64,000 nucleotides of DNA from Rhina ancylostomus (taxonomy: Eukaryota): positions 61,297,876 through 61,361,875 of the forward strand of contig JARFYF010000094.1 of NCBI GenBank assembly GCA_030265395.1. The letters are read 5' to 3'. Each line of letters starts with the position of its first letter. The stretch's first letter is position 1. Made by a program: the position numbers and the translations under genes. Shown in pieces: positions 26,700 to 54,434 of this stretch. The notes below the pieces were generated by a model, which saw only the letters and a list, made by a program, of their open reading frames with translations, ran no database searches and was not told the DNA's origin.

Positions 26700-26702
26700 C
26701 AT

Positions 26703-28940: not shown

Positions 28941-28997
28941 TTCTGGTGGACAGACCCCTCGCAGAGATCTGGAGAAGGTGTTGACAGGAGAGGAGAA
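28941..28997 (+). CDS. IWS1: IWS1 exon (SGGQTPRRDLEKVLTGEE)
   Basis: tgtag/gtaagt boundaries; conserved sequence. Confidence 0.96.
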
Positions 28998-29246
28998 GTA
29001 AGTGATGAACAGATTGAACATTGGAGGAAAGCAATTATTGCATCTTGATTCAAAATTTGGAACTGTCATGTACCCGTCATTGCCGATACTGTTGCTGCTT
29101 TTTAAATAACTGAAATTAGGAAGGAGAATGAGTGTAGATGAAAAATATTTTTAAAAATTCAGTGTAAATCACTATCAAATACACAGATCTTCACAAATCC
29201 TCCACAAATCCTCAACTAACCTATCATTTGCATCTTTGAAATCTAG

Positions 29247-29358
29247 AGCACTTCGACCTGGTGATCCTGGATTCTGTGCAAGAGCCAGAGTACCATTGCC
29301 ATCAAACCGGGATTATGTTGTTAGACCAAAGTGGAATGTAGAAATCGAGGCGAGCAGG
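29247..29358 (+). CDS. IWS1: IWS1 exon ([37 protein letters not shown])
   Basis: tctag/gtgagt boundaries; ARVP and DYVVRP motifs. Confidence 0.97.
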
Positions 29359-32089
29359 GTGAGTAAGGAAGATTTGAGTTGGGTTGGTGATATGACTACC
29401 ATTTTTTTTAAAAAGTGTAAATTCCCAAAGGCAAAATCTTCCAGCAATGACAGTGAGTGTTAATCCACTACTGACTAAAATGGATTGACTTCGATCTTAT
29501 TTTTATATCTCAACTATACCAAATGAATCAATGGTAAGTTCTCTTCTGGACTTAACATGAATGAAAGTAGAAGTGACGATTCTGATTTGCTACCCACTGA
29601 AACTTGAAGTCAGATTGAGAAGGACTCTGTTGAAATCGGTAACATGATCAACTTTTTCAATACTTGTCTGCTGGGGTTGGATACGGAATAGGACTCATCT
29701 TCTTTCAGAACTAACCGTGGAATATATTTTGGCAGGTAATGAGACCAACCACAGGTTGAGCATATAAATAATAAATGTTGTCAGTGAAGGGTACTGGGTG
29801 TTCTGGTGATGTGTTACGTATATCCATAGGTATTACTGTTTTGTAATTTTGTCTGACAATGCCAAATCTATCTCTAGCAGTTTAGATATAAAACTATCCA
29901 AGTTGTCAATGTGCCTATGATGTTATTTGGTTCAAGCTGGCCATTTCACAAGTGCTGGAGAGTCTGGTCTCTGAATCTGCTTCTGGGAGCTTGAATCTCC
30001 AGGCCTTTGTGTCATAATGTACCTGCCAAATGAAAGTTCCAGCAAGAACATCCAGGCCTTTATGTCAGCAGGTACCTGACATGTGGAAGTCCAGTTCCAC
30101 CAGGACTCTTGAGCCACTGGACAGCTACACACTGGGAGGCTACTGACTGAGTGAGCCATTCATAGCTTGGTTTGTGACTCCAGAGAGGGATGGAAGGAAA
30201 TGAAATTTGTAAATGTTGTGTTTGCCTGTTTCATTTGCCCAGAATGCAAGACAATGAGACAATTTGGGCAATTGAATGAAAATAGAAGCTGATACATTTT
30301 TAAAATTCCCTCTTGATCTCAGGTGATTGACAGAAACGCTGGTGATATTTCTCTGCTGTTTTTTATTTATATATGCAGGTGGGTATGAGGCCACTCCGTA
30401 TCCCAAATAGACATGGCCAAGAACAGTAGTACATCATTGATTCCCATGTCAGTTACCTGTGAAACAAAGGAAGTTACATGATCATAATGTGCCAGAGCTG
30501 GTCATTTGGCTTCCCCAGCATGTTGATGATTTAGTGAGTGCTGAACTTGGTGATTCCTGAGTGTCATGTGTTGCAACTGCATTGTGAGCAAAGTCAGATC
30601 AGACAATCTGGCTTTTGTGACGATGGTAGAGTTTGGTTATGGATACTGGGGAGAGCTTTGTTCAATGCTGTGGGATCCAGCGTGTCCATCAGTTTAACTC
30701 TTCATTTAAAGCAAAAAGGAATTTCTTGGAACTGTAAAATTACTTATCCCATTGTATCTGTTGAAGCGGTTTATTTTGCATCATTTTCTCACATCTTTGT
30801 ATATTTTTTCAAGTTGGGATTGAAATATCTTGTCTTCAATCTCTTATAAGACACAATTAATATTGGTGGAGATGAAAGAGATTTTGACCAAGGACATACA
30901 CTCCCTTCTCAAGGTCATTCTTGTACAATTGCAGGATTTGCAACACCTATCTTTTTACCTTCTCCTTTTCCACCATCCAGGGCTCCAAAAATACTTTTCA
31001 TGTGAAACACTAATTCACTTGTACTACAGCCAATTTGTGTAGCCAATATAGGTGCTGCATTGAGAAAACCAAACACAAGTTGGATGACTTGTTTGACTGC
31101 AAGATATGGGATAGCATTTTATTTCAGGAATCTGAATATTGACATGGTTTTTCCACAGATGCTGCCTGACCATCTGAGTATTTCCAGCATTTGCAATATT
31201 TTGTTTTGGCCTCAGTACATTGTTGAGGATGCTGTCTTCCTAAGGAGCCTTCCTGGGGTCCAAGTTCTTCCACTCCTTGAGATGTAAAAGATGTGAATGA
31301 TTTCTTTACATTACTGGTTGTTTATCTTATTTCTGTTCATGACTTGCTATTTTCACAGTAACTTGTTATTTGCATCCTGTTTTGTGGCATCCTCATGATC
31401 ATGTGCTATATAAACTTTTTTCCCCACTCTTGTCTAAATCTTTTACAAAATTGTTATATTCTTTGTCTCAATAGCATTGCACACACATGCAATTAGAATG
31501 ACTACATTCTACTGATGATAATCAAGTCTACTTTATTCCTCAATTTTCATCTGGTAGAAGCAATTCATCAGCTTCTCAACAAAATTACATTTTATGTAAA
31601 CCTTTACTGGATTCTTCCCCTGCAGATGCAAATTCTCTATCTGATTAGCTTCAATATGAGGGTGCACAGGGAAGATAAACAATTAGACTTGTCTTTTGTA
31701 AATTTTGTTCAATTTCTGAAATTCATTCAAAAATGATTGTTTGCCTTTAAAACGGATTTTGTCCTCTGTGTTGTGAGTTCAGAGCTGCAAAAGCTCAGTG
31801 GTATTTGTAAAAAGGAGAGAAGAATCTTGGGAAGAGGTTAGAAATAAAAAGTCAGACTCTGATTCCCTGGCAGGTGTTGGGCTGCTTCCTGGATCTTGCT
31901 GTAGGAGCAGGATTCAAATCTTGAACATTATAGAACTACAAACTGAGCACTGTTGTAGGAAATCCTAGTGTGAGGGGAGAACTAAACTTTCTTACCAAAA
32001 GGAGATGGGAGTTTCCTTTGAGATGTGTACAGAATAAATAACAATAGCTGAGTTATGAAGTCATCAAACATGTTGAGGTGGCTATTTAA

Positions 32090-32850
32090 TGGGCTGTTTT
32101 TTATGAAATATGAATTTTTGGGATCTGGGTGTTACTGGCAGGGCCAGCATTTATTGTCTATCCTTTCCCCAGAGAAGGTGGTTTTGAGCTACCTCTTGAA
32201 TTGCTGCAATCCTTCCTGTGCTGTTAGGGAGGGAGCTCCAGATTTGGACCTGGGGACAATGCAGGATCAGCAACATATTTCCAGCTTGGGATGGTGTATG
32301 ATTTGGAAGGGAAACTGCAGGTGAAGATATTTCCCTGCACCCACTGCCCTTGTCTGTTTTCGTAATAGAGGTTGTGGGTTTGGGAGGTGCTGTCAGAGTA
32401 GCCTAGGTGAGTAATTGCAGAGCACTTTCTAAATGTTGCACACTACAGCCACTGTGCACCCATGGTGGAGGGAATAACTGTTTTGGATGGTTGATGAGGT
32501 ATTCTTCAAGTCGACTGCTTTGTCCTTAATGGTCTTGAGCTTCTTGGAAGTTTTTGAAGCTGCACTCATCCAGGCAAGTCAGCGGTATTCCATTTTGCTC
32601 TGGACTTGTGTCTCATTGATAGTGGAAAGGCTTTGGACTGTTATGTAAGTCACTTGNNNNNNNNNNCTGTGATCTGCTTTTGCAGCCATGGTGTTTAGCT
32701 GATATAATTGAGTTCTGATCAGTAATGACTGCCACATTGATGGTGGGGGGGACTCAGCAATGATAATATCATTGAATGTCAAGGGTGGGTGGATCGACTC
32801 TCCCTTGGCACTTTAGTAAGTGAACGTTACTTACTACTTATAAGCCCATG
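32090..32850 (-). mobile_element. Degenerate LINE 3' fragment
   Basis: Minus-strand ORF remnant (IQTYE..VQS..EY..LAWM-like) followed by a LINE-like tail; clade not determined. Confidence 0.5.
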
Positions 32851-34580
32851 ACTAAATGATTCAAATGCACGTAAGTGTAGTCCCCACTGCTTATGGTAAA
32901 TGGCCTCATGCAAATTAAATTTTGACATTATAAACATCGGGTGCAATAACATGGTAGCAACACATAGCTGAACTAATCATGCTGACAAACCCTAGACCTA
33001 ACCAAGGGCAACAAACACTGCTTCACCAACCTTATGAAAGTCACTGGATAACGTAAAGTAAGCTGCAAATTTTTTTTTCTCGCTCACTATTGATGACTTT
33101 TGATCCTGCAGCCAAGAGACATTTAAGGTATTTAGCTGTTAATGATCCTGAAATCCAGTATGATTAACAATATTATAATTTAAAGCACAATTGAGATACT
33201 TCTGCCCCAAATAAATGAAATGTTTAAGGCTGTAATCAAAAAGTGAAATTGATTAATGTGCATAACCAAGGTTCACCATTTTATGTGCTTTACTGTCCTC
33301 ATTCTGAAATCTGAGTATCTGTACCTGCCACCAGTCCTGGCCTTAATGCAGCTGGTCACACCACACTGGTTGGAGCATCTTAATTTTCTGCCTCAAAATT
33401 CAGACAATCACTTCATGTAGGTCACTCATGCCACTTCTCCCACTGCTTGAACTGTTTATTTCTTGAAGCTGTTGACTCAAATTTATCCTTTGTTTCACAA
33501 GCATCAATCATTCTCTATTATTTTGCGGGTGTTGGCATGCTGTTGAAATGTGATGATCTGGGGAGAGGATATTTCAGTTGAATGAATTTTGTCTTGATGG
33601 GCTGTTTCCAGCAGGTGAGATCAGGAAGCTTGATACAAATTTGGATTTGAACTTAGAAACTTCTTGTTCTATATTGTTCCATACCACGCTGAGCAGTGCA
33701 TTCACTCACTGACTTGAAGAAAGAGAGTTCAAATTTTAATTTACGGTTTAGTTATCAAGGTAGGCTAAGGATCGGAGTCTTTTAGGGAAGTGTAGATGAT
33801 GTGGTGATTTGTTTGAGATTTATAAGATGATTAAGGGAATAAATTGTTTAAATTGACAGTTTGTTCCAATTGAATAAATTAGGATCAGAATGATAATTTT
33901 AAATTGTGTAAGCCTGGATTTGGGTTAGATGATAAATGAAAGTTTCCTTTCCCCAGAGAATAATGGACCAATGGAAGTAACTGTCAGTATATGCACTAGA
34001 TTGCAAGGTTCCTTCATGGAAATTGGATCCATTTCCAGTTGTGGCAGAGAATTCAGAGCCTGAATGACATGGACTGGCTTTGATTGACACAGCTGGGTGG
34101 AAGGAGTGAAGGAGGACTCCCAGACTTTTTTCCAAAAAAATGTCTCCACATTTTTGATCTGACACTTCTCTTGTTGATCATCATATGTTATTAAGTGATC
34201 TGCAGGGTGTATACAGCATTGTAATGCACCCTGATGGTTTACTTATTAGGTCAAGTGGGAAGTTTTTATGCACTACTTGATCTGTAAAATAACTGAAAAT
34301 TTCCTGCATTAGTTGGAATGTTATCATTTTCAAAAAATCTAAAAGAAATTGTGTTCTTTTAAGAACACAGTGAAGCCTTGTTCTGAGACATTTCTTTTGC
34401 TCCAAGATCAGATATTAAGGAAATTTTTATGAAGATTTCCAGTTGTAACACTACAAACATTTCAGGTTGCTTAAGCTTAAAGGAGAGAATTTGATGAAGG
34501 GTCATCAGTATATACGGGGAAATACTGTACTTGTGCAAAGGGAACAGACATTTACTAATTTTCTGACTTGTCCCTCACAG

Positions 34581-34706
34581 GGAGCAGTAAAGAAAACATT
34601 GAATCGTCTTGACAAGCAAATGCGTCGATTTCAAGACATCAAAAAAATGACTAAATCGTCTCGGGCAGTAAAAATCAGCATTGAAGGCAATCGCATGCCT
34701 CTGTGA
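34581..34706 (+). CDS. IWS1: IWS1 last coding exon ([41 protein letters not shown])
   Basis: cacag acceptor; canonical [13 protein letters not shown] C-terminus; TGA stop. Confidence 0.97.
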
Positions 34707-35332: not shown

Positions 35333-37053
35333 CCCCTCTTTGTAAAGGTTTGCACTTCTCAGGAGTTTGTGGTTAGATGTAGACATCACTGCCCTCACAC
35401 GCTTACTCATTTTTTTTGTGTGGTAATTGAAAATGACCTAATCAGAAAGTTGTCTTAATAGAATCATATCATGTAATCCCATTATTTTTGAAAAGGAGAA
35501 GCTGAGCAGAACTGTCATGACATCCTTGCTTGCCTGTTACAGAGAACTAATGTTCATTATTTCCAAGCATCACTCAAAGGATGCGGTCTTTTATAGGAAG
35601 CTGCAAACTAGGTAAGAAATAATAATGAGATTCTACAAGAGAAAGAAATAAGTAGTACTTAATTAAAAATCAAATTAGAAAGGAAATTATTTTGACTTTT
35701 GAAAGGAAGCAAATGGCACTGTGTTAATGAAGTGGGTAGGAGGGGATAGAATTAGGTTGAAGGCAGGGTGAGAGAGGTTTCTGGCTTCATGCGCAACCAA
35801 TTCTAGTGGGAATAAATGACAGTGGATCAATGGAAGGAGGGTTACAAGTATTTTAAAATGTATAGGTAGACAGTAAGTGTAATTTATAGCAGAGTCTCTC
35901 AGCATAACAGGTTTATTCTCTCAATGATTTGAAAAGATGCAAGATTTTGCCTATTTCAGAAAGTTCATTATAGTAACAAGTTTATTTTTAACCTCTNNNN
36001 NNNNNNAATGGTGTTTAACATGGTAAAGCCCATTTGGTAGGTGTTTTGGGTAAAGGAAGTTACTGCCATCCCATATGAGAAAATTTTTAAGGTGTGGCTG
36101 CCTCGAGGTCCTGGCTTAGAGTGAATGGAGGAGCTACGTCACTTGGAATGTGTGCCTCACGTCAAAGTTTGAACTGCTGGGACCTGTGACTGAGCAAGAT
36201 TGCTGATGTGTGTATTATCTTCCTGGATGTAGACCTATCAACAGTAGGTTGGGGATGATCAACTTATGAGGTGAGAAAATGTTCCTGCTCCCTAATGTTT
36301 GAGCACAGATAAAAGTTAAAAATGACCATTTCAAGAAAGAAATGACCAAAAGGTGATGCAGGAGATCCCAGTAACTAAAAATATATACAACTGAAAAGTT
36401 ACTGAACTTTAGGCATTGTTTTGCCTATCTTATCTAACTTTTGTGTTATGAAGGTGCTGGATTAATAGATGGTGGCTGTCACAACAGGGCAATTCAATTA
36501 TCAGCATTTACAAAGGAGTTTATTTATCAAGTATCCAGAACTGCATAAAATAATTAGTGCCAGATTGTTCACTGCCACATGAACTTCAAATCTATGACTG
36601 AATCAGGTTTTAACCAACAGCATCACTGAAGGCTATCCAACTTTGAGGGAAATTATTAATCAGAATTTATATAACTATTCTTTAATAAAAAGTTCAAATG
36701 TGATGATTGATGATTACTGTTGTGAGCTTCAGCCCTTTCATGCTACTGCTTCAGCCAAATGGTTGTGTTTTGTTTTAATCTATTGGTCATCAGACAACAC
36801 CAAATGAAAATATTGTAGCAATGGAACATTCACCATGAGTAATTTCTAGGCTAGAATATTACGAGCTGAAGCTTCTGTTAAGCAAAACTGCTAGTTTAGT
36901 TTAAGACCAGTTCCACTTAAAATCTTTTAAATTTGCTAATTTATTAGCTATTTGGTTTGGAGATCTGCTGTCCAGTGTCACAATGATTTTTCATTACCAG
37001 AGCTTATTATCCTTTCTCTGATGCGACTGTGGTGGTTGTTATAAATCAGTGTG

Positions 37054-37604
37054 TCAGTCATTGTGCTGTAATAAATTATCATGTATCCATGACAAGTAAC
37101 CTGGCACCCTAGTATATAGTCCATATTTTCCTTCTTTGGCACAGCCCTCGCCCCAACTAATCACGCCAGTCAGATACCACGTCTCTCGATACAAAACTGC
37201 ATACGGTCCCCCACTGTCCCCTCTACAGGAATCCTTGTACTCATCTGTGTAACCAGCACAGAACATATTATCTGTAATTTCCAACTTTGTTGATTTGATG
37301 CAAGTTGCCTGTTCAACGTAAGGAAGCTGCACTCTCCTCAAGAATCGGGAAGCCCGACCTCTTTCCTGGGTTACTCCCCAGCCACTTACCATTCCTACTT
37401 TCCCATCTTGCAGTAGGAGCTTGCCCAGGTTGTGATTGGGCAGGCAAATTGGAGCAACAGTAGAAGTAAAATTCACAGACTGATTCAAATACAAAAGGGC
37501 AATATCATTGTCATATGTTATTGGATCATACTGAGGGTGCGTCAGAATCTTCTTCAATAAAATGTTCTGTTCCCCGATCTCTGTTCGAAGTTTATCAAAT
37601 TCAC
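37054..37604 (-). CDS. Vitamin K-dependent serine protease, last exon (D102 in DNDIALL, S195 in DSCRGDSGGP)
   Basis: Open 551-bp exon, cccag acceptor, phase 1, trypsin-family motifs, TGA stop. Confidence 0.97.
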
Positions 37605-39686
37605 CTGGGAGGATTAAGAGCAAAGGGTCACAACCCAGCTTCTGTCATTTAAGTTCTGCAGTTTTTATAGTCTGAAAACAGATCCTTTCTGAAATATACT
37701 AAGAAGAAGAAATAGATGAATAGGATTAATTAGATCACTCCTTCAAAAAGCTAGAATGGGCACTATTGGTTAGATGGTCTCTTTTGTACTATAATAGACT
37801 CTGATTAAATCTGAAGCAAAGGCATTATTCAAAATTAAATCAACTGCTGAAAATCCAAATAAAAGACTAAAGATACAGGGAATCTGAAATACTCAGCAGG
37901 CCAGGCTGCATCTGCTGAGAGAGAGAGAGAGACGGTGCTTAAAACATCTTAGTTGTTTTCTCTCTCAATCCTAATGAAAGGTCACTGATCTGAAGTGATA
38001 ACTCTCTGACACTGCTGCCTTACCTGTTGAGTATTTCCAACATTTTCTGCTTTCACATTTACATTTGCAGTATTCTATCTTTGGGTGAAAGGTGAGAAAA
38101 GTGAAGAGAAAGAATGGAGGGAAAGATAAGAGCTGAGAAAGGAACAGAAAGGATGAGCAGAAGTTGCCACAGAGAGAGAGAATGAAGTTTGAGATACTTG
38201 GGTGAAGGAGACAGTCACAATTGCAAGAGGAGTTGATGCATACAACTGAAGGCAGGAAAAAAAATGAGCAAGAGAAGAGGATCAAAATGAGGAGAGAGAA
38301 ACATTATAAAAACTGTTCAATGTCTACATTGAATATTTTGGGAAAGGGATGACTCGTACCACAGTACAACTTGTACATAATGTGTTCATGTAATAAAATT
38401 AGGGTTGGTAGAATTCAACATTTATTTTGAAACACCATAGCCGAGAAATTGGATNNNNNNNNNNNNNNNNNNNNNNNNNNNNNNNNNNNNNNNNNNNNNN
38501 NNNNNNNNNNNNNNNNNNNNNNNNNNNNNNNNNNNNNNNNNNNNNNNNNNNNNNTGAAATTGGATCCATTTGCAAACAATTTTTTCATGTGCAAATCACA
38601 CTTGAAAGTAACCTTACTCAGCTTAGATCATACTAGCGATGATTTCTAGTGAAATCATGTTCTCTGGGAAATTAGCCCTGGCACTTCTATAATTTACTTT
38701 TGTACAGCTGATGTTTACACAGGATCGGTTGCCCAGATAGTGATACCACAACTCGCATACTTTATGTTTCCTCTATTGCCAGCATAAATTGGAGCTTTTG
38801 AGGGCAACCTATAACCTTTGATCACTCACAGAAAAGCTAGATGCATATTATGGGATTAACAATAATATATAAATACTGTTAGCTTTCAGTAAAACATGAC
38901 ATATGTTTTATTCATGGCACCTCAGCTCTTAACAGTCAGGGTACCTAAAATCAGTGATGTTCCCTTTATTGTTCATGTAAGAGCAACAATCTCTGCCCCT
39001 CAATCAACCCACACTTCACAGTGGTGTGGATGCACTTGCAACACGCACCTTGATTGGGGCAGATTATCATTTGGGGAGTGCCCAGACACAGATCACCTTG
39101 TACCCCTATCCCACATTTCATTCATTCTTGTCTCTGACAGCAGCTTTTTACATAGCTTTCCTGTGGCTGCCTTGAGGTGAATACACTGCACCCAGAGATC
39201 AAGCAGTTGGCAATGAGAACCTCTCAGATCCCACTATAGCTCATGGTTCTGTGTACAAACTCCCCTAGCACTGTTTCTAATGCATTTTCAACCAATTTCA
39301 CAGATTTTTGTGGAGGATCCAATAGTGCTATACATAGCTCTCCAATTAACACAACAAAGATTGCAATTTTTAGCTACATTTGTTGATGTATTGTTATGTT
39401 CACGTTTTACTCAATGTCACTTGAAGCAATCAAATCATAAAATGATATAGAATAAACAGGATTTCAAAAATTATTTTTTGTTCTGTTGTTGACGTAAGGC
39501 TTTTAGGGGGAAAATTTAAATGTATTTTAAACTGAAGAAAGGTGTTGTCCTAAAGTTAATATCCCCAAAAGAGGAGAATCTATACTTACACATCAGTGTA
39601 ACTACACACTAGATTAATAGTAAATGCTGATTTTTTTTTTGTTGACGGTTAAAACTTTTTCTAAAAAAAACATTATTGCATTTTAC

Positions 39687-39804
39687 CTGCTGTAACTGAG
39701 TGTGGTCGTATTGTATCAAAGCAGTGAGCAGCAGTCACAACCCAACGACTGTTAATCAAAGTTCCGCCACAGAATCCAAAACCAGCATTATTATGTATCA
39801 ATAC
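39687..39804 (-). CDS. Protease exon with His57 ([39 protein letters not shown])
   Basis: 118 bp, phase 0-1, AG/GT boundaries, TAAHC motif. Confidence 0.96.
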
Positions 39805-40714
39805 CTAAGAACAATAAAAGCAATACCTCAGAACTGTGTTATTGTAAAAGATGGTGTCCAGTTTAGAGCCTTTTGCATTACAGCCGCAAAGGTTAAAGCT
39901 GATTTGCCCTATTTTACATTATGCGGTGTCAGTAAGTAATTGTTTCTTTTGCACAGTGAGACGGTATGAGATAGCCTAAATTAAAGATAATTGCAAAAAA
40001 TGAAAGCAGAGAATATGCAGGGGTCTGGAATAAAGTGTAGATTTCTTAAGCTCAAAACATTGTTGAAAAAAACTTAATTCATACAAATAAAATATTTGAT
40101 AATTGTTTTAAAAGGGAGGAATATTAAAGTAAGCGGAGCATAATATTGAACCAAGTGAATTCTGTCCAAAATTCTTGGCAGGCTCAGTCTTTCTGAACTT
40201 GTATCATTTCATGGCCTAGATTTTTATCCATCATGAAGACTTCACTGACCTAATCAGATATTGTTCTCAGCACAAGACCCATTCTTGGATGACAGCTCAA
40301 TACCACCTAAGTGGCAAAGTTTGGGAAGGCAACCATCAAGTGAAATTTAAAACATGTTTTCCATTCAATCCCAATTTGTCTTGCACAGTTTGTACCTTTT
40401 TAATGAGCTGAACACAAGAATGAGCTTCTTTACACCCCTTGTCCTTTCACTCCTGACCTAAGGAAGATGAGAGACCGTTTTCTGTACTTGTTCTCTTTCC
40501 CCTTAAGAAATTCTCATCCAACCAGTTTGAATTTTATAGGATTCCACCAGAATACCTTCACAAGTTCCACTCTAAAGAGTAAATGGCACATATTCACAGG
40601 GAAGAAGTAGTGTTACAAGAATCCCAAAATCTCTATACATTTCATGAGAACAATGCCGTAAATCTACTGTACAGGACATGGGGAAAACTAATGATGGACA
40701 AAAATAGAAAGATA

Positions 40715-40920
40715 CAAGTCCTCCCCAGGTTACAAACGCCCAACTCATGTACAGTCTGTGCATGCGAACAAGCATTTGGGAGACCGGTGGTATGGATTTA
40801 CCGGCTGCAGGCATCTTCTGCCACCTTGAACTCGGTTTATGGCTGCATCGCTGATGCAAACTGTCTGGGTTACAAAATGTTCACAGGAACAGAAACCTGC
40901 CATAATTTGGGGAGGGCCTG
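40715..40920. mobile_element. Tc1/mariner-Tigger-type MITE
   Basis: Imperfect 18-bp TIRs CAAGTCCTCCCCAGGTTA / TAATTTGGGGAGGGCCTG flanked by TA. Confidence 0.6.
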
Positions 40921-42186
40921 TAAATGTAGGATGGTCAGGAAGTTCTTTGAGCAGTTGGAACTAGACATCTAATACAACGTAACCTCATTGTGAATGTATC
41001 ACCTCATAGCTTGCACTGAAAGTGAACTGACTATAAGACACATTGCACCATTTCCATTAGAGACCATTGAGTTTCAAAGCACCAGTCATCAGCAACTCTG
41101 CAGTGGGTCTCATTTCTTCCTCCTCATAAAAGTGGTAAAGAGGAATGCCAAAGCACAGGAAAGTGTAATCTGGTAGAATGGCTGCTAAGTTATATCATTA
41201 GGCAAAAAAATGTTGGAGAAGTAGGGAAAATCTGGTGTCTGAAAGAAGGGTTCCAGAAAGAATTTAATTGCAAGTAGTCTTTTACTGTTCTCTAACTTAT
41301 CTGCAGCTGCAATGATATGAAGCCAGAGCTGAAGTGTAAAGGCAAGACAGTTAACTGACAAATATACTTCGTGATACATCATCTCAATGTGTATATTATT
41401 GAAAGATGTTTGGGGCACTGAAAATATTACCCTCTGAGAGACGGAGACTGAGAGTGTGTGATACTTGACCTTGTACAATCAAACTTCTTCCATTGAAGTT
41501 AGTTTCATGGTACAATGTTGGCGACATCTCATTGGGGAACTTTCATCCAGATCAGATCCCCCTTCTCTACCACTTCCATTCCAACTTCCGTGGCCTTAGC
41601 TTAAAAATAAGTCTAGAGAATCCAGATGCATGGCACCCCTTCCTTCACTGATGGGCCTAATCACTTTCATGGAGGATCAAACATCATTGTCCCCTCTTGG
41701 AACAATCATGCTTTCAGGGCATTGCCACTTAATGAGAAAGGGGTGGGGGTGCTTCTGAAGCGGGTGCCAGTTCAGTGCTGGGGATCAGCAAATCTCACTC
41801 TAATTTGCCTTCACAGGTCATATGTCTTCCCCACGCCCCCCCCCATACTGTGCTGACCCCATCCCTCTCCCAGACATCCCAATGACCCCTCCCAACCCTG
41901 AACTCTGGACACCCCACCAGCCCCAACCAAGCTCAATTTCCAGACACCAACCCTGGACCTCGTGCTGAAGAATTATACAGCAGTAGACCGATGGCAGAGG
42001 TGGTTATTGGTGTTCTTTGAGTGCCAATTTTAGGAAAACATATAATTTAAGTTTCATAAATATTGCAAACCATAACCAGACTTCACATGTTCCAATTCCA
42101 TCTCCACAACGTGGTGCGATTAAACATACTTCAACAGCTTAAGGACTTATGAACCAAATGTGTGAGCACAGCTTTATATGCCTTAC

Positions 42187-42374
42187 CTGCCAAGGACAAA
42201 GGCCTCGTCTGCAAAGGTTTCCACCAATAATTCGTATCCGAGCTTCTGATTCACTGTAATTTAACTTTGTTAGGTAATCAAAGTCTGTATCCGTGTCATT
42301 GAGGGAATATTCTGCCTCATTGAATGCACGAGTTCGTGATCCATACAGAGGTAACCTCCCACATGGGTATTCCT
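42187..42374 (-). CDS. Activation-region exon (EYPCGR...SRTR/AF...ARIR/IIGGNLCRRGLCPWQ)
   Basis: 188 bp, phase 1-0, YPCG interchain cysteine and R-IIGG activation site. Confidence 0.96.
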
Positions 42375-44479
42375 CTGGAGTTAAAGAGAGGAAAGTAACA
42401 AATTCAATGGACTTTGAAGGATGCACAGAGAAACTAATCGGTTAAGTATTATCTAGAAGGTTAATCTAAATAAATGAGCAGAGGTGGATTCGCATTTGAT
42501 AAACTGCAAGTGGCTGAAGATCAAGATTTCTCACAGCCGACCATATGGAAGCAATGAGCCACAAGGAGGAAATTCCACTGCAGCATTAAGTGTCTGACTA
42601 ACAACTGGCATAAACTAGGGGATGTGCTTCCTGAATTTGTTTTTTCCAATTTTCAGAAGTTCAGGAACTGTCATATTCATGAAGTATCATCTTTGGTTAA
42701 TCATATGTGCTGTGAGCTTACAGCCACATCAAGGTTAGAACGACTCATTACAGTATATCGTCCCTGCTTTAAAATGGCAATTTGACATCCTTAGATTTTC
42801 AACCCCCATCATTTTCTTGCGAGACCTTCTTTACCTTCTTCTAACATTAAGAGTTACATCAATTTGTATCTGGTTCTAGATCAATGTGGTCTGCACCTTA
42901 ACAGGATGGGCTGTTTCCCTGGAAGCAATGTAATCTATGTTCCACTTTGTCTCCATCCTAGCATGTCCATGTCGTCTAGAAATTGGATTTCACTTTTGTT
43001 GCTCTAAATGGATATTAGGTTTTTTTCCTGATGGCAAATCAGGGGTCACCAAACTAAAAGTGAGAAATTGCGATATCATCACTCTTGTGGTTTTCTCCCA
43101 TTTACAACCAGTAGAACACAACTTGGATACTCACAGTTGGCAGCTACCACAGATGAGGGAAAGCGTAGAGGGAGTGGAGAAATAGACAGGAAGGAAAAGA
43201 GAAGGGGCAGTTCGAGGGGGGGGGGAAAAGGCTAACAAATGTGATGAGCACCCCATGCTATATAACAGCCCAATCAATCTCCAATCAGGCCATTGTCATA
43301 GTGGCCATATTATGATCATAGATGCAAGTACCTTGCAACAAGGTACACAAGCACTGAAATCTCTATTAGTGATGCCTGCCTCCAAAATGGCAGCACATGG
43401 AAATCAATGTGGAGTCTCAGTACTGATAAAATTGATGTCCCAGTGGGGACCCTTTAAATCGCATACAGTTCCTAACATGCTATGTGGTTTGCTCCTTGTT
43501 TTACAAGTGAGAAACGAAGATCATGGGTCATGACCTTTTATATAATTTCTGCCACGCATGTTGATGGTGATATTATATGCACAAAATACAATGTAAAATG
43601 GCATGTGTGCTTAGGTGAATTAGATAGTGCCTGGTCCAATTTTGCAATGAATGAGACTTCTAGAAAACTGCAAACAATACTTTTGATGCATGATTTGCAC
43701 ATAGAACTTGTAGATATTTACCATAATCCAATTTCTAGGCAAGAATTTCTTAACCAAAAGTTGACATCCAAGTCCCAACATTGGCTTCTTAAAGGTTAAT
43801 TTGGACACTTGGCTAAGATGCTGATAATGGCTTTGAATCAATTGTAACTTTGTGTGCAAGTTACTGGACAACATCAAAGGCTTGAGATATTGTTCTGGAG
43901 ACACCACTTTCAATCTCACCATGGAATTTAAATAAATGGAATTAAATAAATTTGAAANNNNNNNNNNNNNNNNNNNNNNNNNNNNNNNNNNNNNNNNNNN
44001 NNNNNNNNNNNNNNNNNNNNNNNNNNNNNNNNNNNNNNNNNNNNNNNNNNNNNNNNNNNNNNNNNNNNNNNNNNNNNNNNNNNNNNNNNNNNNNNNNNNN
44101 NNNNNNNNNNNNNNNNNNNNNNNNNNNNNNNNNNNNNNNNNNNNNNNNNNNNNNNNNNNNNNNNNNNNNNNNNNNNNNNNNNNNNNNNNNNNNNNNNNNN
44201 NNNNNNNNNNNNNNNNNNNNNNNNNNNNNNNNNNNNNNNNNNNNNNNNNNNNNNNNNNNNNNNNNNNNNNNNNNNNNNNNNNNNNNNNNNNNNNNNNNNN
44301 NNNNNNNNNNNNNNNNNNNNNNNNNNNNNNNNNNNNNNNNNNNNNNNNNNNNNNNNNNNNNNNNNNNNNNNNNNNNNNNNNNNNNNNNNNNNNNNNNNNN
44401 NNNNNNNNNNNNNNNNNNNNNNNNNNNNNNNNNNNNNNNNNNNNNNNNNNNNNNNNCAGCATGGAATCCATGTGCTGGA

Positions 44480-45050
44480 CAACAAGGCATTAAAGGAGCC
44501 AAATGAGGGCCAGAACTCAGAACCATGACAGCATGACAAATGACATAAAATTTACTATAAGTTGCAAAAATAAATAAATAGTGCAAAAGGGGAATAACGA
44601 GACAGTGTTCATGGGGTTCATGGACCATTCAGAAATCTGATGGCGAAGGGGAAGAAGCTGTTCCTGGAACACTGAGTGTGAGTCTCCAGGCTCCTGTACC
44701 TCCTCCCTGATGGTAGTAATGAGAAGAGAGCATGTCCTGGGTGGTGAGGTTCCTTAATATTGGATGCTGCCTTCTTGAGGCACCGCCTCTCAAAGATGTC
44801 CTCGATGGCAGGAAGAGTTGTCTCTGTGATGGAGCTGGCTGAGACTGCAACCCTCTGCAGCCTCTTTCAATCCTGCACATTGGAGCCTCCGTACCAGGTG
44901 GTGATACAACCAGTTAGAATGCTCTCTACCATACATCTATAGAAATTTGCAAGTCTTTGGTGACATACCAAATGTCCCCAAAGTCCTAAAGAAGTAGAGC
45001 TGCTGGCTTGCCTTCTTCATGATTGCTTCAATGTGTTGGGCCCAAGACAG
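44480..45050 (-). mobile_element. Rex1/Babar-type LINE 3' fragment
   Basis: Homologous to 4757-5223 and extends through NSFFP-like end and tail. Confidence 0.72.
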
Positions 45051-47030
45051 GGTGAAACTGACAATGGTAAAGAATGCAGAGCGTAGTAATGGATGACTCT
45101 TCTTTCAGACTAAAGGGAAGTGTGCAGTGGTACCTCTGAGGGGCTAATTTTAGAACCACTGCTCTTTTTTTGACATATTGACTTCAGCATTCAGGACAGA
45201 ATTTAAAAATCTGTTGATAACACAAAACCTGGAGATGGAGGAAACTGAAAAGGTTAGTAACAGGTGCAAGGAGAACATGGATAGACTTGTGAAACAACCT
45301 GATACATGGCAAATTAGCTTTAATGCACAAAAGTGTAAAATGCTACATTTTGAGGCAATATAAACCAAATGGTATAACTTTAAAGAGGGTATGCAAACAG
45401 TCAGATGGGGGTGAAGGTGGCAATATAAGTTGAGAAGGTTTCACAGAAGCACAGAGCACAAAACATTGTGTTAAACTTTCTTGGATAATCTTATAAACCA
45501 TTTGGAGTATTTATGCTAACTGCTAGGCACTGCAATTTAGAAAGGATGTCAAGGCCTTAGAACATAGATAGAATGGTACTAAGGATGTACAAATTTGTTT
45601 CTTGTAGAGAAGAAGGAAGCTGCAGTTATTTTACTTGAAGCAAAAAAGGCTGAGGAGATTTAATGGTATGGTGCCTGAACTGCAGAGAATTTTCAGCATC
45701 TTGTTTTTATTTCAGATTTCCAGTATCTGCAGGTTTTTTTAAAATTTTTCATTTAGTGAAGACTTGAATATCACCAAACTTCATTCTTTTTTAAATATGA
45801 TCCAATATGACACCAGATTTCTGTGACACCTTGCAACACTACAGACACTGTTGCATGAACCGTCGAATTAATTAATTATTTTTTAAAAAGATGGGCCATG
45901 GCAGTGGGTAAAAGAGCAGGAAAAGGTGTATGAATTTCATTAGTGTGTCCCTCCTGGTGCATGACAACACCAGCAATGCACTGAAGTTCCCTTGTGACTC
46001 CTCCACTTATGGCATTGAGATCACAATAAGCCATACCATGCACAATGACCTGGAAAATCTCACTGCTTATGCATTGCCCAATAAAAAAAGTGATAGGAAT
46101 GATGCCTAGATAGAAGAGGAAACATTGGAAAAAAAAACACACTCCCACTTGCTCTCCTGCATTCTTGCTCTCGATCCTTCTCTTTCAGAGCAAATGGCAG
46201 CTGGAGGGAGAACTGTGAAGTTCCATGTTATGGACTGGTTGCTGTTGTCTTTGCTCTGTCCTGCCAGTGAGGACTTGAAAGAGTGGGTCCAAGAATCTGA
46301 GCTGGATAGAGCAGTGTCCATCCTCTCGGTTCAATAGCTGGATGGTGTTGGGGAATTGGGGATTCTGAAGATCTAATCTGGAAAGTGGGGAGGGTTAGGG
46401 TGGGGAGTATCCGAGAGCTGAAAGGACCAACCATGAGTTAGTGATTTCACAGGTCATTAAAATGCTTGGTCACTATCAGCATCTGCATTATCAACAATCC
46501 TCTGAACTCCATATTTTTGCTGGTTAGGTTGCAGATGCACAAGGTAGATATTGCATTATGGACACTTTACAGCTTTAATGTTTGTTGTGAAGTCATTGTA
46601 TATTTCAAGTTATATTTTTTGAAAACTGATTTCTCTTTCATGAGTAATTACTTGAACAGCATTATTATCCATCATTCTGAAATGTCCTGCACAATTTCTA
46701 TCTTAACAAACATAAAACCCCATAAAAAGTATAATATTCACAGGTATGTGTATTTGACTGTGGTCATCTGGCACAAACAGTGGAGCTATCACCTCTAACT
46801 ATCTTCTTTGTGCTTTTGCATGGAGTCTAATGTGCATCCACCAATTCACTGGTGATGTGAGGTGCTGACCCTCTTGCCTAGATGTTGAATAGTAAAAGTT
46901 TCCACAACCCATATGAAAGAAATAGAAAGCAATAAGCCAAATAAACATGCATGCTCACGTGTATCCTGCACAACCAGTGACACACATGAGGAGGGTAAGT
47001 CGGGGCACATTATCAGAAGCAACCACCAAC

Positions 47031-47144
47031 CTGTTTCACAATGCTCTCCTTTCCACAGGGGAGGGCAGAGACAGATATATCTATAGCTGTCGAGTTTACA
47101 CAAACCACCATTCAGGCATGGATTGGATTTACAAGGATCCAAAT
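47031..47144 (-). CDS. EGF1 exon (NLDPCKSNPCLNGGLCKLDSYRYICLCPPLWKGEHCET)
   Basis: 114 bp, phase 1-1, six EGF cysteines. Confidence 0.95.
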
Positions 47145-47224
47145 CTGGGTATGACAGAGATAAAAGCATTCAGAGAAACATTTGAAGAATATGTTCATCA
47201 GGAATTGGCAATGTGATTTAACAG

Positions 47225-47575
47225 ATCTTATAGACTCACACAGTATGGAAACAGACCCAACGAGTCCAAACTGACTAGACTATCAACAACACATTAACAC
47301 TTTCCTACATTAATCCCATTTATTATTCTTTTCCCCGCATTCTCATCAACTCCCCCAAGATTCGACTACTTACATACACACTAGGGACAATTTACAGTGG
47401 ACAATTAATCTGGCAACCCGGATGTGGGAGGAAACTGGAGCACCCAGAGGAAACCCACGTGGTCGCAGGGATAATGTGCGAACTCCACGCAGACAGTACC
47501 TGAAGTTAGGATTGAACCCGGGTCTCTGGCACCATGAGGCAGTAGCTCTACTAGCTGCACCACTGTGCTGCCCTC
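47225..47575 (-). mobile_element. tRNA-derived V-SINE
   Basis: A/B boxes (gtggtgcagc, ggttcaatcc) and core gtgggtttcctctgggtgctccagtttcctcccaca. Confidence 0.85.
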
Positions 47576-48237
47576 TTGTAGAATAGTAATCTCCCAGGAT
47601 TCTGGATAATGGAATTTGGCTTGAGAAGAATTAAATAAATGTCCCTTGGTTTGACCTGCTTTCACTAAATTCCTCTCATTCCTGCAAGAAATTTGATTCC
47701 TTTCCTCCAACCACATCACAATTTTGCTATGTTGATTCTTAATTTGTATCTTCTAGTGCTACAAATAGTGTGCGACTACTTCACATTCAAAAATCACAAG
47801 AATTGTTTTCCCATTGAATAACTATCAATACAAATTTTGTAACTTCAGTGAAGGCTGCAATCAAAATAGATTGTCTGAAGCATTAATTGTTTAACAGGTG
47901 AAGGTCAATATATTGAGATTCAGGCATCTTTGTTATTATGAAATCTTATACCACAATGATGATTAACTGCTTGGTGTATTTATGAAAGATGTAGCCATTA
48001 GCTTCTGTTCCTGTACAGCTGCCCAAGAGACTCCATGCATCCTTGATGGATATTAAAGTCTCTGCTGTGGCTATAGGTTTGATTGCCAGCAATGTCTGAT
48101 ACATGTGGTAACTAGGCAGGAGCACTAATTGGTGATAATCTCTTTCGTGGACAGCTTTATGATCCTAAATCTCACAGAATATAGGAAAGAGTACATCGGA
48201 AATGAATCATCATTCCAAGTGATACAACATCACTTAC

Positions 48238-48262
48238 TTTTGTAGGAAAACCAAAACTCCAT
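48238..48262 (-). CDS. Aromatic-stack mini-exon (MEFWFSYK)
   Basis: 25-bp exon typical of F7/F9/F10/PROC; FWxxY motif; aacag/gtaagt boundaries. Confidence 0.93.
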
Positions 48263-48649
48263 CTGTTGAAACAAAGAAAAATGTTAAGGTTCTATTTATA
48301 GGAGTTGTTAACCAGCCATCACTTCATTCACCTCAGATGAAGCTTTTAACTTCAACTATTACATCCTGCTAATGTTCTCAGCCATGTGGCAACTGAAGTG
48401 GCCACCAATTTCAGTTTATTAATCCTGTTAAAATGAGTTTTACTACCATGGGTTTGATCATGTGAATTGCTACATGAAATTAAGAAAATTTTTTCATGGA
48501 ACTACCTGTGATTTCCACTCCTGACATGTGTTTGAAAATTCAAAAGTAGGATAGATGCCACTATAAACAAATAAAAAATGCGGGTGGGAGGTGTAGCTGG
48601 TGACAGAATTAGCAAAGGGTTAACTGAATTCATTCAAAATAAGTTGGAG

Positions 48650-51420
48650 ATTAATGATTTGGTAAAAGTTAGTAGAGTGGGCCAGGAAAGGAAAAGCTTA
48701 ACGATGGTTATCTGGCATTAATGATTAATGTACCATCAGTGAAATGTGGAAAATGGTTAAAAACAAGTGCGTTAGGTCTGAATGTGTGAAACTTATACCA
48801 CAAGATAGATGAATTAATACTACAGGCAGAAATAGTCATGATAACGTGACCAGAGTTGAGAAATAAATATTCCCAAGAAAAGGGAAACAAAATGGAAAAG
48901 GAAAGGTGGGATGGAATTATCCTGATAATAAAGGATAGGGATGAAAGATAGTGTGCGAGACAAGAAAATCATGAAGTAGAATCAGTTTGGTAGAGCTAAG
49001 AATGATTGCTGAGTGGTGGAGTCGGCTTGAGAGGCTGAGTGACCTACTCCTGCTCTGAATTTTGATATTTCCATGTTTTGAAGGATGTGTTTATAGTGCC
49101 ATAACTGTATTTGGACTTTTGAACAGAGTGAATAGTAGGAAATTTGAGATGTGCACAACAGAGGTAATATGGTAGATAGTGGGTCTTTAATTTTCATAGA
49201 CACTGAACCAACCAAAGTTGCAGTGATGCAATGATGATGGGTTTATTATGTGCATTTAAGATAGATTTTAAAATTAGCTTGTCAAGGAAATAACAGGATT
49301 ACAGGCAATTTTAGATTTAGCATTGCACAATGAGTCAGGGATAATTCATAACGTTGTAATAAATAAATCTTCAGAAAGAAGCAATCATAACATGATATAA
49401 TTGCAGATTGAGCTTAAGAGCGTTTTAGTTGAAGTTAAAACCAAGAACTTAAAATTTAAACAGAGTAGCCAAGGAGTCATATAGCATGGAAATAGGCATT
49501 TTGGCCTATTGAGTCCTAGCCAACCATTAAGCACCATTTATTCTACCCAAGTTACTGGAGTTGAGAGGGAATAAGCTTCACTAGCTGCGTCACCCCAGGA
49601 AGGGATGAAAGGCATTTGCTAAGGTGTTTTGGGAAACTAAACTAAAATATATGATGGTACATAAGCAATGGCAAACATCAAAGTCAATAATTTATACTTC
49701 ACTATAAATGTATAATCCCCAAGACGATCAAAAACCCCTTGAGAAAGACAAGTCCAACCTCTAGATTGGTTAAAGACTGTATTAAATTAAAAGCTTAACA
49801 AGTTCCCAAAAGAGTAACAAGCCTAGTGAGTGAACATTTTAGAATTCAGCAAATGATGACTGATGTGGAGAGAGAGAAAAAAAGAACATGCAAGCCAGAA
49901 TGAAGGTAAAGTCAAAAGATTTAAAATCTTCCGTAGCACAAAAAATATTAGCAAATGTAAATGTATGCTCATGGCAGGCAGAGAAATTTTTGACAGTCTT
50001 AGAGATATACAGCATAGAAATAGGCCATTCAGCCCACCATGCTCCTGCTGTCCTTCAAGTACCAACTATGTTAATCCCATTTACTAGCACTTGGTCTGCA
50101 GCCTCTATGCCCTGGTGATTCAAGTTCTGAAGTCATATCAAGGGTCTCGTGAGAGTGATGACCTTAAAGATATGAGTTCTAATAAAGAAAAGGTATTGGA
50201 CAGATAAATGGGAGTAAAAAATAACAGAACCCCTTGACCTGATGGCCAACATTCTTGGGCATTTTAACAATACCTTTTACAGAGATAGGAAATACATTGG
50301 TTTTCATTTTCTAGAATTCTTTAGGTCATCATAGATTAAAAGGGAGCAGATGTAACCTAGTTATTTATGAAAGAAGGGAGATAGAAACTAGAACTCTGAG
50401 ACAGTTGGTTTAACATCAAGTATAAAAACATGAACAGAAGAACCTAAGAAATGGGAGAAGGAATATGCCATCTGCGCCACTATTTATCAAGGTCATGTCT
50501 GATTGTCTACCTCAGCACAATTTTCCTGCACTATTCTCATATCCCTTGATGCCACTAACATCCAGAAATTTCAACTTCTGTTTGAATGAATTTAATGACT
50601 GCCTCTCCACGGCCCTCTGAGGTAAAGAATTCTAAATATTAATCATCCTCTGAGTGAAGAAATTTCTTCTCATTTCAGTCTTAGTTGTAAAATGCTACAA
50701 TTGTGGAATGTGGTAAAAAGGCAGTCAAAAATTATAATATGATTAAACAAAGTCTGTATGAATTTATGAAAGGAAATTCACATCCGGCAACTCTAACCAA
50801 GTTTCTTGGATTGTAACTAATGGGGTAGTTATAGTAATCAGTGAATGTTGGGTAATAGCTCAGTAGGTTGCCACTCAAAAGGTGAATACACAAACCCAGG
50901 ACTTAAATGGGTCACTTAAGAGAAGAGAGAGAATGGAAGTAATTGGGTTAATTTTGGCTTGGAATATTATAGTGCTGCAAGAATTGGTATTTGAGCCAAT
51001 ATCTTTATCAATGATATGGATGTGGGGTCTGAAAGTAGTGTACCCAGATTTATGAATGATACAAAACCTTTGGAAAAGTAACTTATGAAGAGCTTGTAAA
51101 GATCTACAAAGGAATTTGGACAGGTTAATTAAGTAGGCATGAACATAACAGGGTGACTACAATGTGGAGAAGTTACCTATCTTAGTAGGGAAAATAGAGA
51201 GGCGGGATATTTTGCTTAAAGGATGAGGGATCTGGTATTCAGATGGTGTCAAATGATGGTATTCAGATCAGAGGGATTTGGTGTCATTATCCATCAATTG
51301 CAGAATGTTGGCATGTGGATGTAGCAAGCAATGAGGGTAGAAAATTGTATGTTTGCCTTTATTAAAAAGCATTTGGTGTGCATGAGTAAGAAAACATTTC
51401 TGAAATTATTTTAGGGACTT
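48650..51420 (+). mobile_element. Old fragmented CR1-like LINE with nested short insertions
   Basis: Scattered endonuclease/RT remnants, e.g. tttatcaatgatatggat...tttatgaatgatacaaaa (FINDL/FADDTK-like). Confidence 0.5.
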
Positions 51421-51598
51421 GGAGTGCATATCTTTATCCTGAAAAGCTCATTTGATATACACAATTATATCTTAAGTTAGACTTGCACATATAAACATAC
51501 AAAATGCATGCCTACAGAAGACACAGACATATACATATACAAAATAGGCATGTACACATGCCCACATATCCATATGCATTTATCATAGCACAGCTTAC

Positions 51599-51759
51599 TG
51601 TATTTTCTCTGGATTTATAAATTTCTTGTGCTTCCTCAAATGTACAGGATTCCTCATAGCATTCTCTCTCTAGAGACCCTGGTTTAAGTTCTTCCCAGAA
51701 CCAGTTTGCACGTTTCCGAATTTTCAGCACTCTTGTTGCTTCATTCTTCTGGGAAAACA
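51599..51759 (-). CDS. Propeptide and Gla-domain exon ([54 protein letters not shown])
   Basis: 161 bp, phase 1-0; F-16/A-10/L-6 carboxylase recognition site; LERECxEExC motif. Confidence 0.97.
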
Positions 51760-52679
51760 CTATAAAAACGTTGCAGAGGGTGAGGTGGTGAAGGTGGCAT
51801 GTGGGGAGAGGATTTCAGGGAGGGCTGGCATTTCAAGGTTAAGATCACAATCATTAATTCAGACTGGTTCCAGGCCTGCTCTGGAATCAAATCTTTAATA
51901 AACACAGAACAAGAATCATTGTGTGATGCATGTTGCCCTGCAAGTAGTACTATTCCTGGTTGAAAAATAAACAGAGGAGAATGAAATCCCCCCACTGCTT
52001 CCCTCCCATGAAGTCAATTGCATAGAACTTCATAGAGCACCCCAGATCTTCGCTGTCCTTTCCAAAGGATTCTGTAATGTGCCCAGCAAATTGCCACCAA
52101 TCTCATTGATGTCAGCCTCTCAGCTGATGGAAATATGGATGTGTTTCTAGGCACTATTTTGTTTGGGATAATGTATACCTGTTTGTATTGGGCTCAGCAG
52201 TTGACAGGTTTTTCTGCTAAAATCAGAATTTACTGTTGTAACTTTCTCCAGATTTGCATTTAGAAGGTTCCACATCTAGTATCTGGTAGCCCAGAGCAGC
52301 TCACTTCATCCTTGGTTGCTCTGCCCTCCAGTTTAGTGAACTGGACTATCAAAATAGCCTGGCAATACTGCTGGAGGCACTTCACTGAGAATTGGAGTTG
52401 GAAACCAGCAGCCTGTAAATATCCAGGTCTGAAGCCTCAAAGACCAGAGAAATACACTTTTCACTTTCAGTTTCAACTTGATGCTTCTCCAGCTTGAGGA
52501 GGATTCTCATGTAAATCCCCATTGTCATTTGCAGGATGATGTTGCGTATCAGAGTCTGTTTGGAAATCCAGCTCCCACTGTCTCTCAAGCTTCCCTCTTT
52601 ACAAGCCTAGTTCAAGCCTTTGATTGTGGGCCCAAAAGGAGTGAAAGTGGACTCCTTACAAGGTAATGGAATGTAGATA

Positions 52680-53855
52680 CAGTGGCAGGCAAAAGTTTGG
52701 ACAGCCCTGGTCAAAATGTCTGTTACTATGAATAGCTAAGTGAATAAATGATGACCTGATTTCCAAAAGGCATAAAGTTAAAGCTGACACATTTCTTTAA
52801 TATTTTACGCAAAGTTACTTTTTTAATTCCACCCTTTACAGTTTCAAAATAACAGAAAAGGAAAAGGGCTTAAAGCAAAAGTTTGGACACCCTGCATGGT
52901 CAGTACTTAGTAACACCCCCTTTGGCAAGTATCACAGCTTGTAAACGCTTTCTGTAGTCAGCTAAGAGTCTTTCAATTCTTGTTTGGAAGATTCTTGCCC
53001 ATTCTTCATTGCAAAAGGCTTCTAGTTCTGTGAGATTTTTGGGCCGTCTTGCAGGCAGTGCTCTTTTGAGGTCTATCCACAGATTTTCAATGACGTTTAG
53101 GTCAGGGAACTGTGAGGGCCATGGCAAAACCTTCAGCTTGTGCCTCTTGAGGTAGTTCATTGTGGATTTTGAGATGTATTTAGGATCGTTATCCTGCTGT
53201 AGAAGCCATCCTCTTTCTTTTTCAATCTTTTTTTATTGGTTTCAAATCAATACAAATGGTATATGGCATCAAAGTTTGTACATATCTTANNNNNNNNNNN
53301 NNNNNNNNNNNNNNNNNNNNNNNNNNNNNNNNNNNNNNNNNNNNNNNNNNNNNNNNNNNNNNNNNNNNNNNNNNNNNNNNNNNNNNNNNTGGCTGCAACA
53401 CAAGCCCAAAGCATGATCGATCCACCCCCATGCTTAACAGTTGGGGAGGTGTTCTTTTCATGAAATTCTGCACCCTTTTATCTCCAAACTTTCCTGCATC
53501 CTCACCACAAAATTCAGGGTCAGTAGTTTGCAAAGGAACATCGAAACAAGCCTGATGCCTTTTGGAAACAAGTCCTGTGGACTGATGAAATTAAAGTAGA
53601 ACTTCTTGGCCGCAATGAGCAAAGGTATATTACTAAGTACTGACCATGCAGAGTGCCCAAACTTTTGCTTCTGGCACTTTTTCGTCATTTTGAAACTGTA
53701 AAACTGGAGATAAAAAAATAATCTTGCTTAAAATATTAAAGAAATGTGTCAGCTTTAACTTTATGCCTTTTGGAAATCAGGTAATCTTTTACTCACTTAG
53801 CTATTCACAGTAACAGAAATTTTGACCAGGGTGCCCAATCTTTTGCATGCCACTG
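52680..53855. mobile_element. Tc1 transposon derivative with transposase remnants on both strands
   Basis: CAGTGG...CCACTG termini with TA on both sides; WPSQFPDLNVIENLW...GGVTKY* on the - strand; VLWTDE on the + strand. Confidence 0.92.
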
Positions 53856-54364
53856 TATGTGGAAAAGTTAAATAAAAACTAGATAGATATTTGATAGAAC
53901 AGGATTAAAGATCAAGGACATTAATTTTCAGTAAAGGGAAGATGAAGGTAAACAAAGAAGAGGATGCCAGCAAACAAGGTGGGTTCTAAAAAGGCACGTC
54001 TTTGCAGCAACTTCAAAAAGGTAGGTTTGGCTAATCCACAAGGTCATCAGTGAATGAACACCAAGCAAATGGCTCTTGACTAAAGTGGATTTGATTTGAT
54101 TTGACTTTGTTCCTTGTACTTTACATAGGATTCATCTATTGGGTGATTCTTGGATTAATCTTATTTCTGTTCAAGTGACCTTTCAAATTACCATAACCAA
54201 AATGAACATCTGTATCTGCAGTTTCACGTCATGGGTGATAAGAAGATTCCTGAACTATTCCTTGCAATTTTCTCTTCTTGAAGCAGCAATGTGGTCAGTT
54301 CTATTTCTGAATATAACATTAACATGGGAAGCTTAGGTAGAGTTAATGTGATCTTGGCACCTAC

Positions 54365-54434
54365 CTGAGTTCTCAACACTCACAGCACAGCTAACCAGCA
54401 TCAGTGACGCCAAACACCAGTGACACCCCAGCAT
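54365..54434 (-). CDS. Signal-peptide exon (MLGCHWCLASLMLVSCAVSVENS)
   Basis: 70 coding bp, gtaggt donor in phase 1 joining the Gla exon; hydrophobic core; polypyrimidine/AG acceptor just upstream (about 54460). Confidence 0.85.

Follow-up and report, generated by a model that had tools for sequence, protein, structure and literature searches.

We analysed a stretch of 64,000 nucleotides from the ray Rhina ancylostomus (contig JARFYF010000094.1, positions 61,297,876 to 61,361,875; hereafter the window), which carries on its minus strand, between positions 37054 and 54434, a gene for a vitamin K-dependent serine protease. Judged from its sequence, this gene is almost certainly a sirtilin orthologue, sirtilin being the sixth vertebrate gene of the Gla-EGF-EGF-serine-protease type. 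It is also very probable, taking both parts together, that this sirtilin orthologue lies between PROC, the gene of protein C, and IWS1 and that it encodes a plasma protease likely to be membrane-binding, Arg-specific and weakly clot-promoting. The initial annotation had described it as an unnamed and uncharacterised coagulation-factor paralogue; both adjectives have to be withdrawn, the class having been named by Dahms et al. in 2019 and the snake enzyme characterised biochemically in the same report (PMC6850207). The family is already known and the gene is not a new clotting factor. The PROC-sirtilin-IWS1 order, the loss of a calcium site in EGF1 and a hagfish candidate did not turn up in the literature searched and seem to be new, as modest additions.

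Seven minus-strand exons, all bounded by AG and GT and joined in phase, give 1227 nt encoding 408 amino acids and a stop, without internal stop codon. Exon 1 (54365..54434; 70 nt with ATG at 54434 and a GT donor) encodes the signal peptide, 87% identical to the N-terminus of the protein P0004. The propeptide, ending in VLKIRKR, and a Gla domain with 11 Glu (Pfam Gla, E=1.9e-14) are found in exon 2 (51599..51759), followed by a 25-nt aromatic-stack exon reading MEFWFSYK (exon 3, 48238..48262) and by EGF1 (exon 4, 47031..47144; Pfam EGF, E=3.1e-9). A 499-N assembly gap (43958..44456) is the inferred site of the missing 135-nt exon 5, encoding EGF2. Exon 6 (42187..42374) carries the inter-chain Cys (PCG), a 32-residue activation peptide (SRTR/AF...ARIR/IIGG) bearing two N-glycan sequons and the start of the protease domain with Cys22-Cys27, exon 7 (39687..39804) carries His57 (TAAHC), and exon 8 (37054..37604) runs to a TGA stop and holds Y99, D102, D189, S190, R192, S195, S214 and Y225. 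Pfam Trypsin scored E=2.7e-45; like Gla and EGF it was scored on a single exon (three in all). Six-frame translation returned, on the minus strand, VLKIRKR, IIGGNLCRRGLCPW, TAAHC, YDNDIAL, DSCRGDSGGPY and WYLTGVISWGEGCA. Exon joins, Pfam and IWS1 matches together confirmed what had initially been seen: seven in-phase stop-free exons, an 11-Glu Gla domain, EGF1 and a full catalytic triad, tail-to-tail with IWS1.

At E<=1e-40 the window protein has 312 relatives, to which databases give names ranging from factor VII, IX or X to protein C and venom prothrombin activator. Among the best 120 of these 312, sharks, rays and a chimaera showed 65-94% identity, and bichir, sturgeon, gar, lungfish, coelacanth, amphibians, reptiles, birds and wombat 54-62%. 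The wombat cluster comprises 7 marsupial species; a wombat query returned no named placental or monotreme row among the best 120 of 1295 matches, which is weak evidence of absence. The gene is ancient, as first suggested, and retained in non-mammalian vertebrates, where it is labelled factor VII/IX/X-like. The proposed non-mammalian branch stands in that non-mammals keep the gene but has to be widened, since those seven marsupials keep it too.

In a FastTree analysis of 475 domains, sirtilins formed a 232-member clade at 0.993, two starfish domains (P0040) placed beside it having been dropped from the counts (234 to 232). Maximum-likelihood trees of protease domains were built with IQ-TREE using a MASP/C1r/C1s-type outgroup, with PROZ (a long branch) and thrombin omitted. 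With 58 domains, 17 sirtilin rows including the window protein made up one clade (100/99), separate from those of protein C (100/99), F7 (98/91), F10 (96/84) and F9 (85/97), and the F7, F9 and F10 rows of the same genome fell in their respective clades. The light chain alone again recovered the sirtilin clade at 100/99. Constraining the window protein with protein C alone was rejected by the approximately unbiased (AU) test (p-AU 0.0014). The initial view that the protein is not protein C, nor F7, F9 or F10, was thus upheld, the tree showing a separate clade instead of nesting in any of the four. We also considered a sirtilin N-terminal half derived from protein C; this was rejected, as the light-chain tree does not join the two.

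The clade can be tied to the published sirtilins by accession. It holds the koala (XP_020822846.1, P0308), python (XP_007422034.2, P0365) and chicken (XP_004937006.1, P0349) proteins given as sirtilins in Table S1 of PMC6850207. P0357 carries the S184 and I254 sites cited there for Thamnophis, and the Protobothrops protein C and Callorhinchus factor IX accessions of that paper fall in the protein C and F9 clades. Protease-domain identity of the window protein was 62.0% to koala, 58.5% to Protobothrops, 57.6% to chicken and 56.8% to python, and 40.7-45.9% to protein C, F7, F9 and F10. The same paper reports sirtilin in lamprey, elephant shark (Callorhinchus), zebrafish, snakes, chicken and koala, and not in human. 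Zebrafish f9like, a third 'f9' gene said to be functionally similar to factor X and for which a knockout line was made (PMC9585388), may be the zebrafish sirtilin (XP_001343728.4), a lead only.

The window protein shows the sirtilin feature set: the catalytic triad, an R/IIGG insertion sequence, the inter-chain Cys, Tyr225 and AGY codons at S195 and S214 (both AGT, S195 at 37215), the AGY coding and Tyr225 being reported for sirtilins in PMC6850207. It shares with the snake and other sirtilins of that report the clade, the Gla, EGF1 and protease parts of the Gla-EGF-(EGF)-protease layout (EGF2 being absent from the assembly), the R/IIGG activation site and the TR/ site opening the activation peptide, which is bordered by Arg sites and lacks an RRKR furin site. 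It differs in the length of this peptide (32 residues versus about 70 in snake sirtilins), in residue 192 (Arg, mostly Lys in sirtilins) and in its first cut site, SRTR, without the R-x-x-R pattern of the snake proteins. The P3-P1 activation site varies among sirtilins (DSR, DTR, DPR, RTK, RIR), which hints at differing activators.

Protein C resembles the window gene in exon phases, domain order and propeptide end (LRIRKR versus LKIRKR), but the protein C of the same ray shows 41% protease identity to it. Moreover, the window protein has Cys22-Cys27 (present in 0/16 protein C), Y99, Y225 and a long activation peptide, and the hallmarks of protein C (no Cys22-Cys27, GDSGGPM, short activation peptide) were not found in it. 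With F9 and F10 it shares Y99, Y225, D189 and the long activation peptide, and with F7 and F10 Cys22-Cys27; the substrates of snake sirtilin overlap in vitro with those of factors IX, X and VII (PMC6850207). It is nevertheless 42-46% identical to F7, F9 and F10 and distinct from them in clade, in locus and in the loss of EGF1 calcium-site residues.

This loss is shared by the other sirtilins parsed. The beta-hydroxylated Asp/Asn of EGF1 is missing in 165/165 parsed sirtilins (219 single-domain rows, 54 unparsed), while it is present in 12/12 parsed protein C, 9/9 F7, 25/25 F10 and 31/34 F9 sequences. The window protein has Leu at this position and its Gln/Glu is also gone; most sirtilins have Pro in place of the Gln ligand. 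Hence sirtilin EGF1 is predicted to be calcium-independent, with a different Gla-EGF1 geometry. In the protease domain, the acidic 70/80 calcium pair is kept in 211/232 sirtilin domains, Y/F99 in 221/232 and Y225 in 217/232. The linker from PCG to Ile16 has a median of 122 residues in sirtilins, 72 in F10, 20 in protein C and 15 in F7. Its extremes in sirtilins are 14 and 268 residues, birds and turtles having the longest linkers among the sequences viewed. Light chains carried 12 Cys in 165/176 parsed orthologues.

Residues R192 and E192 and the 170-loop, on which the initial annotation had relied, were rejected as diagnostics because their power to discriminate does not extend beyond mammals. 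In the PROC of the ray itself, K192 replaces the E192 taken as typical of PROC, R192 is found in ray F9 as well as in the window protein, and a missing 170-loop insertion, used as an argument against F7, was seen in 40/44 F7 domains; ray F7 also lacks it.

As the initial annotation had proposed, the true PROC is the neighbouring gene: it shares the strand and lies 19 kb upstream, at about 73,269-104,311 in extended window coordinates (C94:61,371,144-61,402,186). Exon for exon it corresponds to stingray protein C, and among PDB entries human protein C matches it best (E=5.6e-53, the next 3.4e-39). The 25-nt aromatic-stack exon of this PROC could not be located, and the intron concerned holds a 4610-N gap. 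A weak test for a kinase exon motif upstream of PROC showed none. On the other side, on the opposite strand, IWS1 (2855..34706, plus strand, the start being only the first acidic exon-like frame seen) was identified by an exon at 20567-20683 matching human IWS1 (E=1e-18) and by a last coding exon, ending at 34703, matching C-terminal residues 778-819 of the human protein. About 2.3 kb separate the stop codons of IWS1 and the window gene, which face each other, so that the order reads PROC, window gene, IWS1. The other paralogues lie elsewhere in the 2.2-Gb genome: one strand of contig C74 (58.87-58.99 Mb) carries, one after another, the last exons of F7, F10 and PROZ, and F9 lies on C112.

The order is not peculiar to this ray. 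In 13/13 database proteins with two protease domains pairing the sirtilin clade with another clotting factor, protein C came first; these models come from rays, sturgeon, gar, amphibians, a turtle, squamates and birds, and we infer that they reflect adjacency and order, not real fusions. The words synteny, chromosome, adjacent and locus do not occur in the main text of PMC6850207, and no report of the PROC-sirtilin-IWS1 order was found in the literature searched, subscription papers not being covered. The tandem arrangement supposed at the outset is therefore established as a position. Descent from PROC is not: the best tree does not join the two, and a sirtilin plus protein C grouping was neither rejected nor shown (p=0.24). 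Sirtilin as sister to PROC was favoured by FastTree (0.85), whereas the maximum-likelihood tree supported another grouping (89/80).

The deep fork stayed open when cyclostomes were added by swapping 5 rows of the 58-domain tree for 5 new ones, and the sirtilin clade was still 100/99. In this tree, lamprey P0407 and hagfish P0482 were sister to the sirtilin clade (94/78, just under the starred level). Two hagfish proteins, P0439 and P0482, are both labelled 'coagulation factor VII'; P0439 groups with protein C (100/97). Lamprey P0452 is a protein C-like protein. Protein C is scored absent in jawless fish in Table 2 of PMC9643190.

As for function, we favour a procoagulant role, which seems fairly probable. 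By analogy with the family, the protein would be secreted, probably from liver, its propeptide removed at KR/AN and up to 11 Glu gamma-carboxylated, and the Gla domain would bind phosphatidylserine membranes in a calcium-dependent manner. A cut at ARIR/IIGG would activate it, a second at SRTR/AF would free the 32-residue glycosylated peptide, and the light chain would stay tethered through a PCG-Cys122 disulfide. D189, G216 and G226 would form a trypsin-like S1 pocket, accompanied by a Tyr225-type sodium site. Refolded Thamnophis sirtilin is reported to be activated by human FXIa, to prefer P1 Arg with a catalytic efficiency between those of FIXa and FXa, and to cleave prothrombin (mainly at Arg271) and FX slowly (PMC6850207). 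The ray enzyme may, like the snake one, cleave both slowly, possibly without cofactor. FXI is absent in cartilaginous fish according to Table 2 of PMC9643190, where sirtilin is unmentioned; likely candidates for an activator in these fish are tissue factor-FVIIa, FXa or thrombin.

Several points weigh against this picture of the gene and its product. Snake sirtilin generated thrombin far more slowly than FXa (turnover about 1.7 versus 1431 per hour), and its activator and substrates in these assays were all human (PMC6850207); prothrombin may therefore not be its real substrate. Arg-specific activity is reported for the Thamnophis enzyme alone, and would be extended by analogy to cartilaginous-fish sirtilins. 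The trees contain no thrombin row and no human row, and uniting sirtilin and F9 as one clade gave a borderline p=0.057. Finally, the EGF2 exon was not found by pattern search or by tblastn on the window and 160 kb flanks, a genome-wide tblastn gave 4 weak matches (best E=3.3e-4), none at this locus, and among contigs of the same organism (X1) no piece spans the gap 43958-44456.

A sirtilin by descent could instead act in regulation beside protein C, as an anticoagulant or in PAR signalling, a possibility that we regard as doubtful. The conserved PROC-sirtilin tandem, seen in the 13/13 fused models, fits such a role, but adjacency alone implies no shared function. Similarly, the protein C-like propeptide end (aliphatic-x-K-R) and the DPR/IIGG site of some snake sirtilins, resembling DPR/VVGG of ray PROC, point towards protein C, whereas the frequent Y/F99 and Y225 resemble F9 and F10 and the 37-loop of the window protein has no basic residue. 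The snake data can be read both ways: thrombin is made very slowly and the non-activating Arg271 cut is preferred, but activation of prothrombin and FX was measured (PMC6850207). The rest of the probability goes to roles outside clotting.

A true loss of the EGF2 exon in this species, leaving a Gla-EGF1-protease variant or a decaying copy, appears improbable. The failed searches would agree with it, skipping the exon preserves the frame, the seven exons translate openly, and 4 database orthologues have only 6 light-chain Cys after Gla. However, the 499-N gap sits exactly in the EGF2 intron, inside the 4656 bases between the EGF1 and activation-peptide exons, no stops or frameshifts were found elsewhere in the gene, and 12 Cys are the rule among parsed orthologues. 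A 453-residue orthologue from Pristis, whose protease domain is 92% identical, aligns along the whole window protein save one 45-residue block, which is its EGF2. Further evidence came from run X5, which stems from a related organism, is RNA only by conjecture and showed joins only around exons 2-7. Its contigs reached a depth of 916-940 over exons 6 and 4 (near 2-15 for intron pieces), and the exon-limited contig of exon 6 has spliced ends. Loose ends read as exon 7 and, at 47144, as exon 3 and then the last part of exon 2, so that exons 2 and 3 are joined. In one contig of 381 letters, exons 6 and 4 are linked through about 136 letters (381-217-28), where EGF2 would take 135. These contigs show that the relative makes a spliced form with an EGF2-sized insert, which holds for the relative, not for the window species. 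Most likely, the exon of the window gene is hidden in the gap 43958-44456. As for a second PROC copy or an F9 or F10 orthologue, automatic names of relatives (coagulation factor IX, X, VII or protein C) and the best PDB matches (human FIX and FX) suggest it, but the separate clade at 100/99 in both protein halves, the presence of all four orthologues elsewhere in the genome and the rejected grouping with protein C leave it next to no credit.

Some further features were observed. The first AATAAA past the stop of the window gene (36940..36945, minus strand) is a candidate polyadenylation signal. Intron 1 contains, at about 52,680-53,850 on the minus strand, a DDE transposase remnant split by an N gap (Pfam DDE_3, E=2.8e-7 at 52903-53232), presumably of Tc1/mariner type. 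The acidic 5′ coding region of IWS1 is doubled (2877-3394 and 5394-5914, plus strand; 94.8% over 521 bases), and a second repeat pair lies at 5863-6006 and 6849-6992 (97.9% over 144 bases); lying between N gaps, these repeats reflect either local duplication or an assembly artefact.

We tentatively consider, while thinking it unlikely, that a single ancestral two-gene cassette, in which a gene with a short activation peptide preceded one with a long peptide on the same strand, was doubled in an early vertebrate genome duplication and gave rise to PROC-sirtilin and F7-F10 as sister copies. Order and strand are the same in both pairs, the linker medians divide accordingly (protein C 20 and F7 15 versus sirtilin 122 and F10 72), and the AU test rejects neither protein C plus F7 (p=0.22) nor sirtilin plus F9 plus F10 (p=0.20). 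However, these two groupings were named after the tree was seen, and the free tree joins F7, F9 and F10 at 97/95. If the cassette were real, protein C would have its lost 'factor X partner' in sirtilin, a gene retained by lineages from cyclostomes to marsupials, rewired when its EGF1 lost the calcium site, and discarded in placental mammals alone.

Sirtilin is still a poorly known family, mislabelled in databases. The PROC-sirtilin-IWS1 order offers a simple identifier of sirtilin in any vertebrate genome, a guide to a placental remnant and a guard against mistaking sirtilin for F9 in comparative clotting studies.

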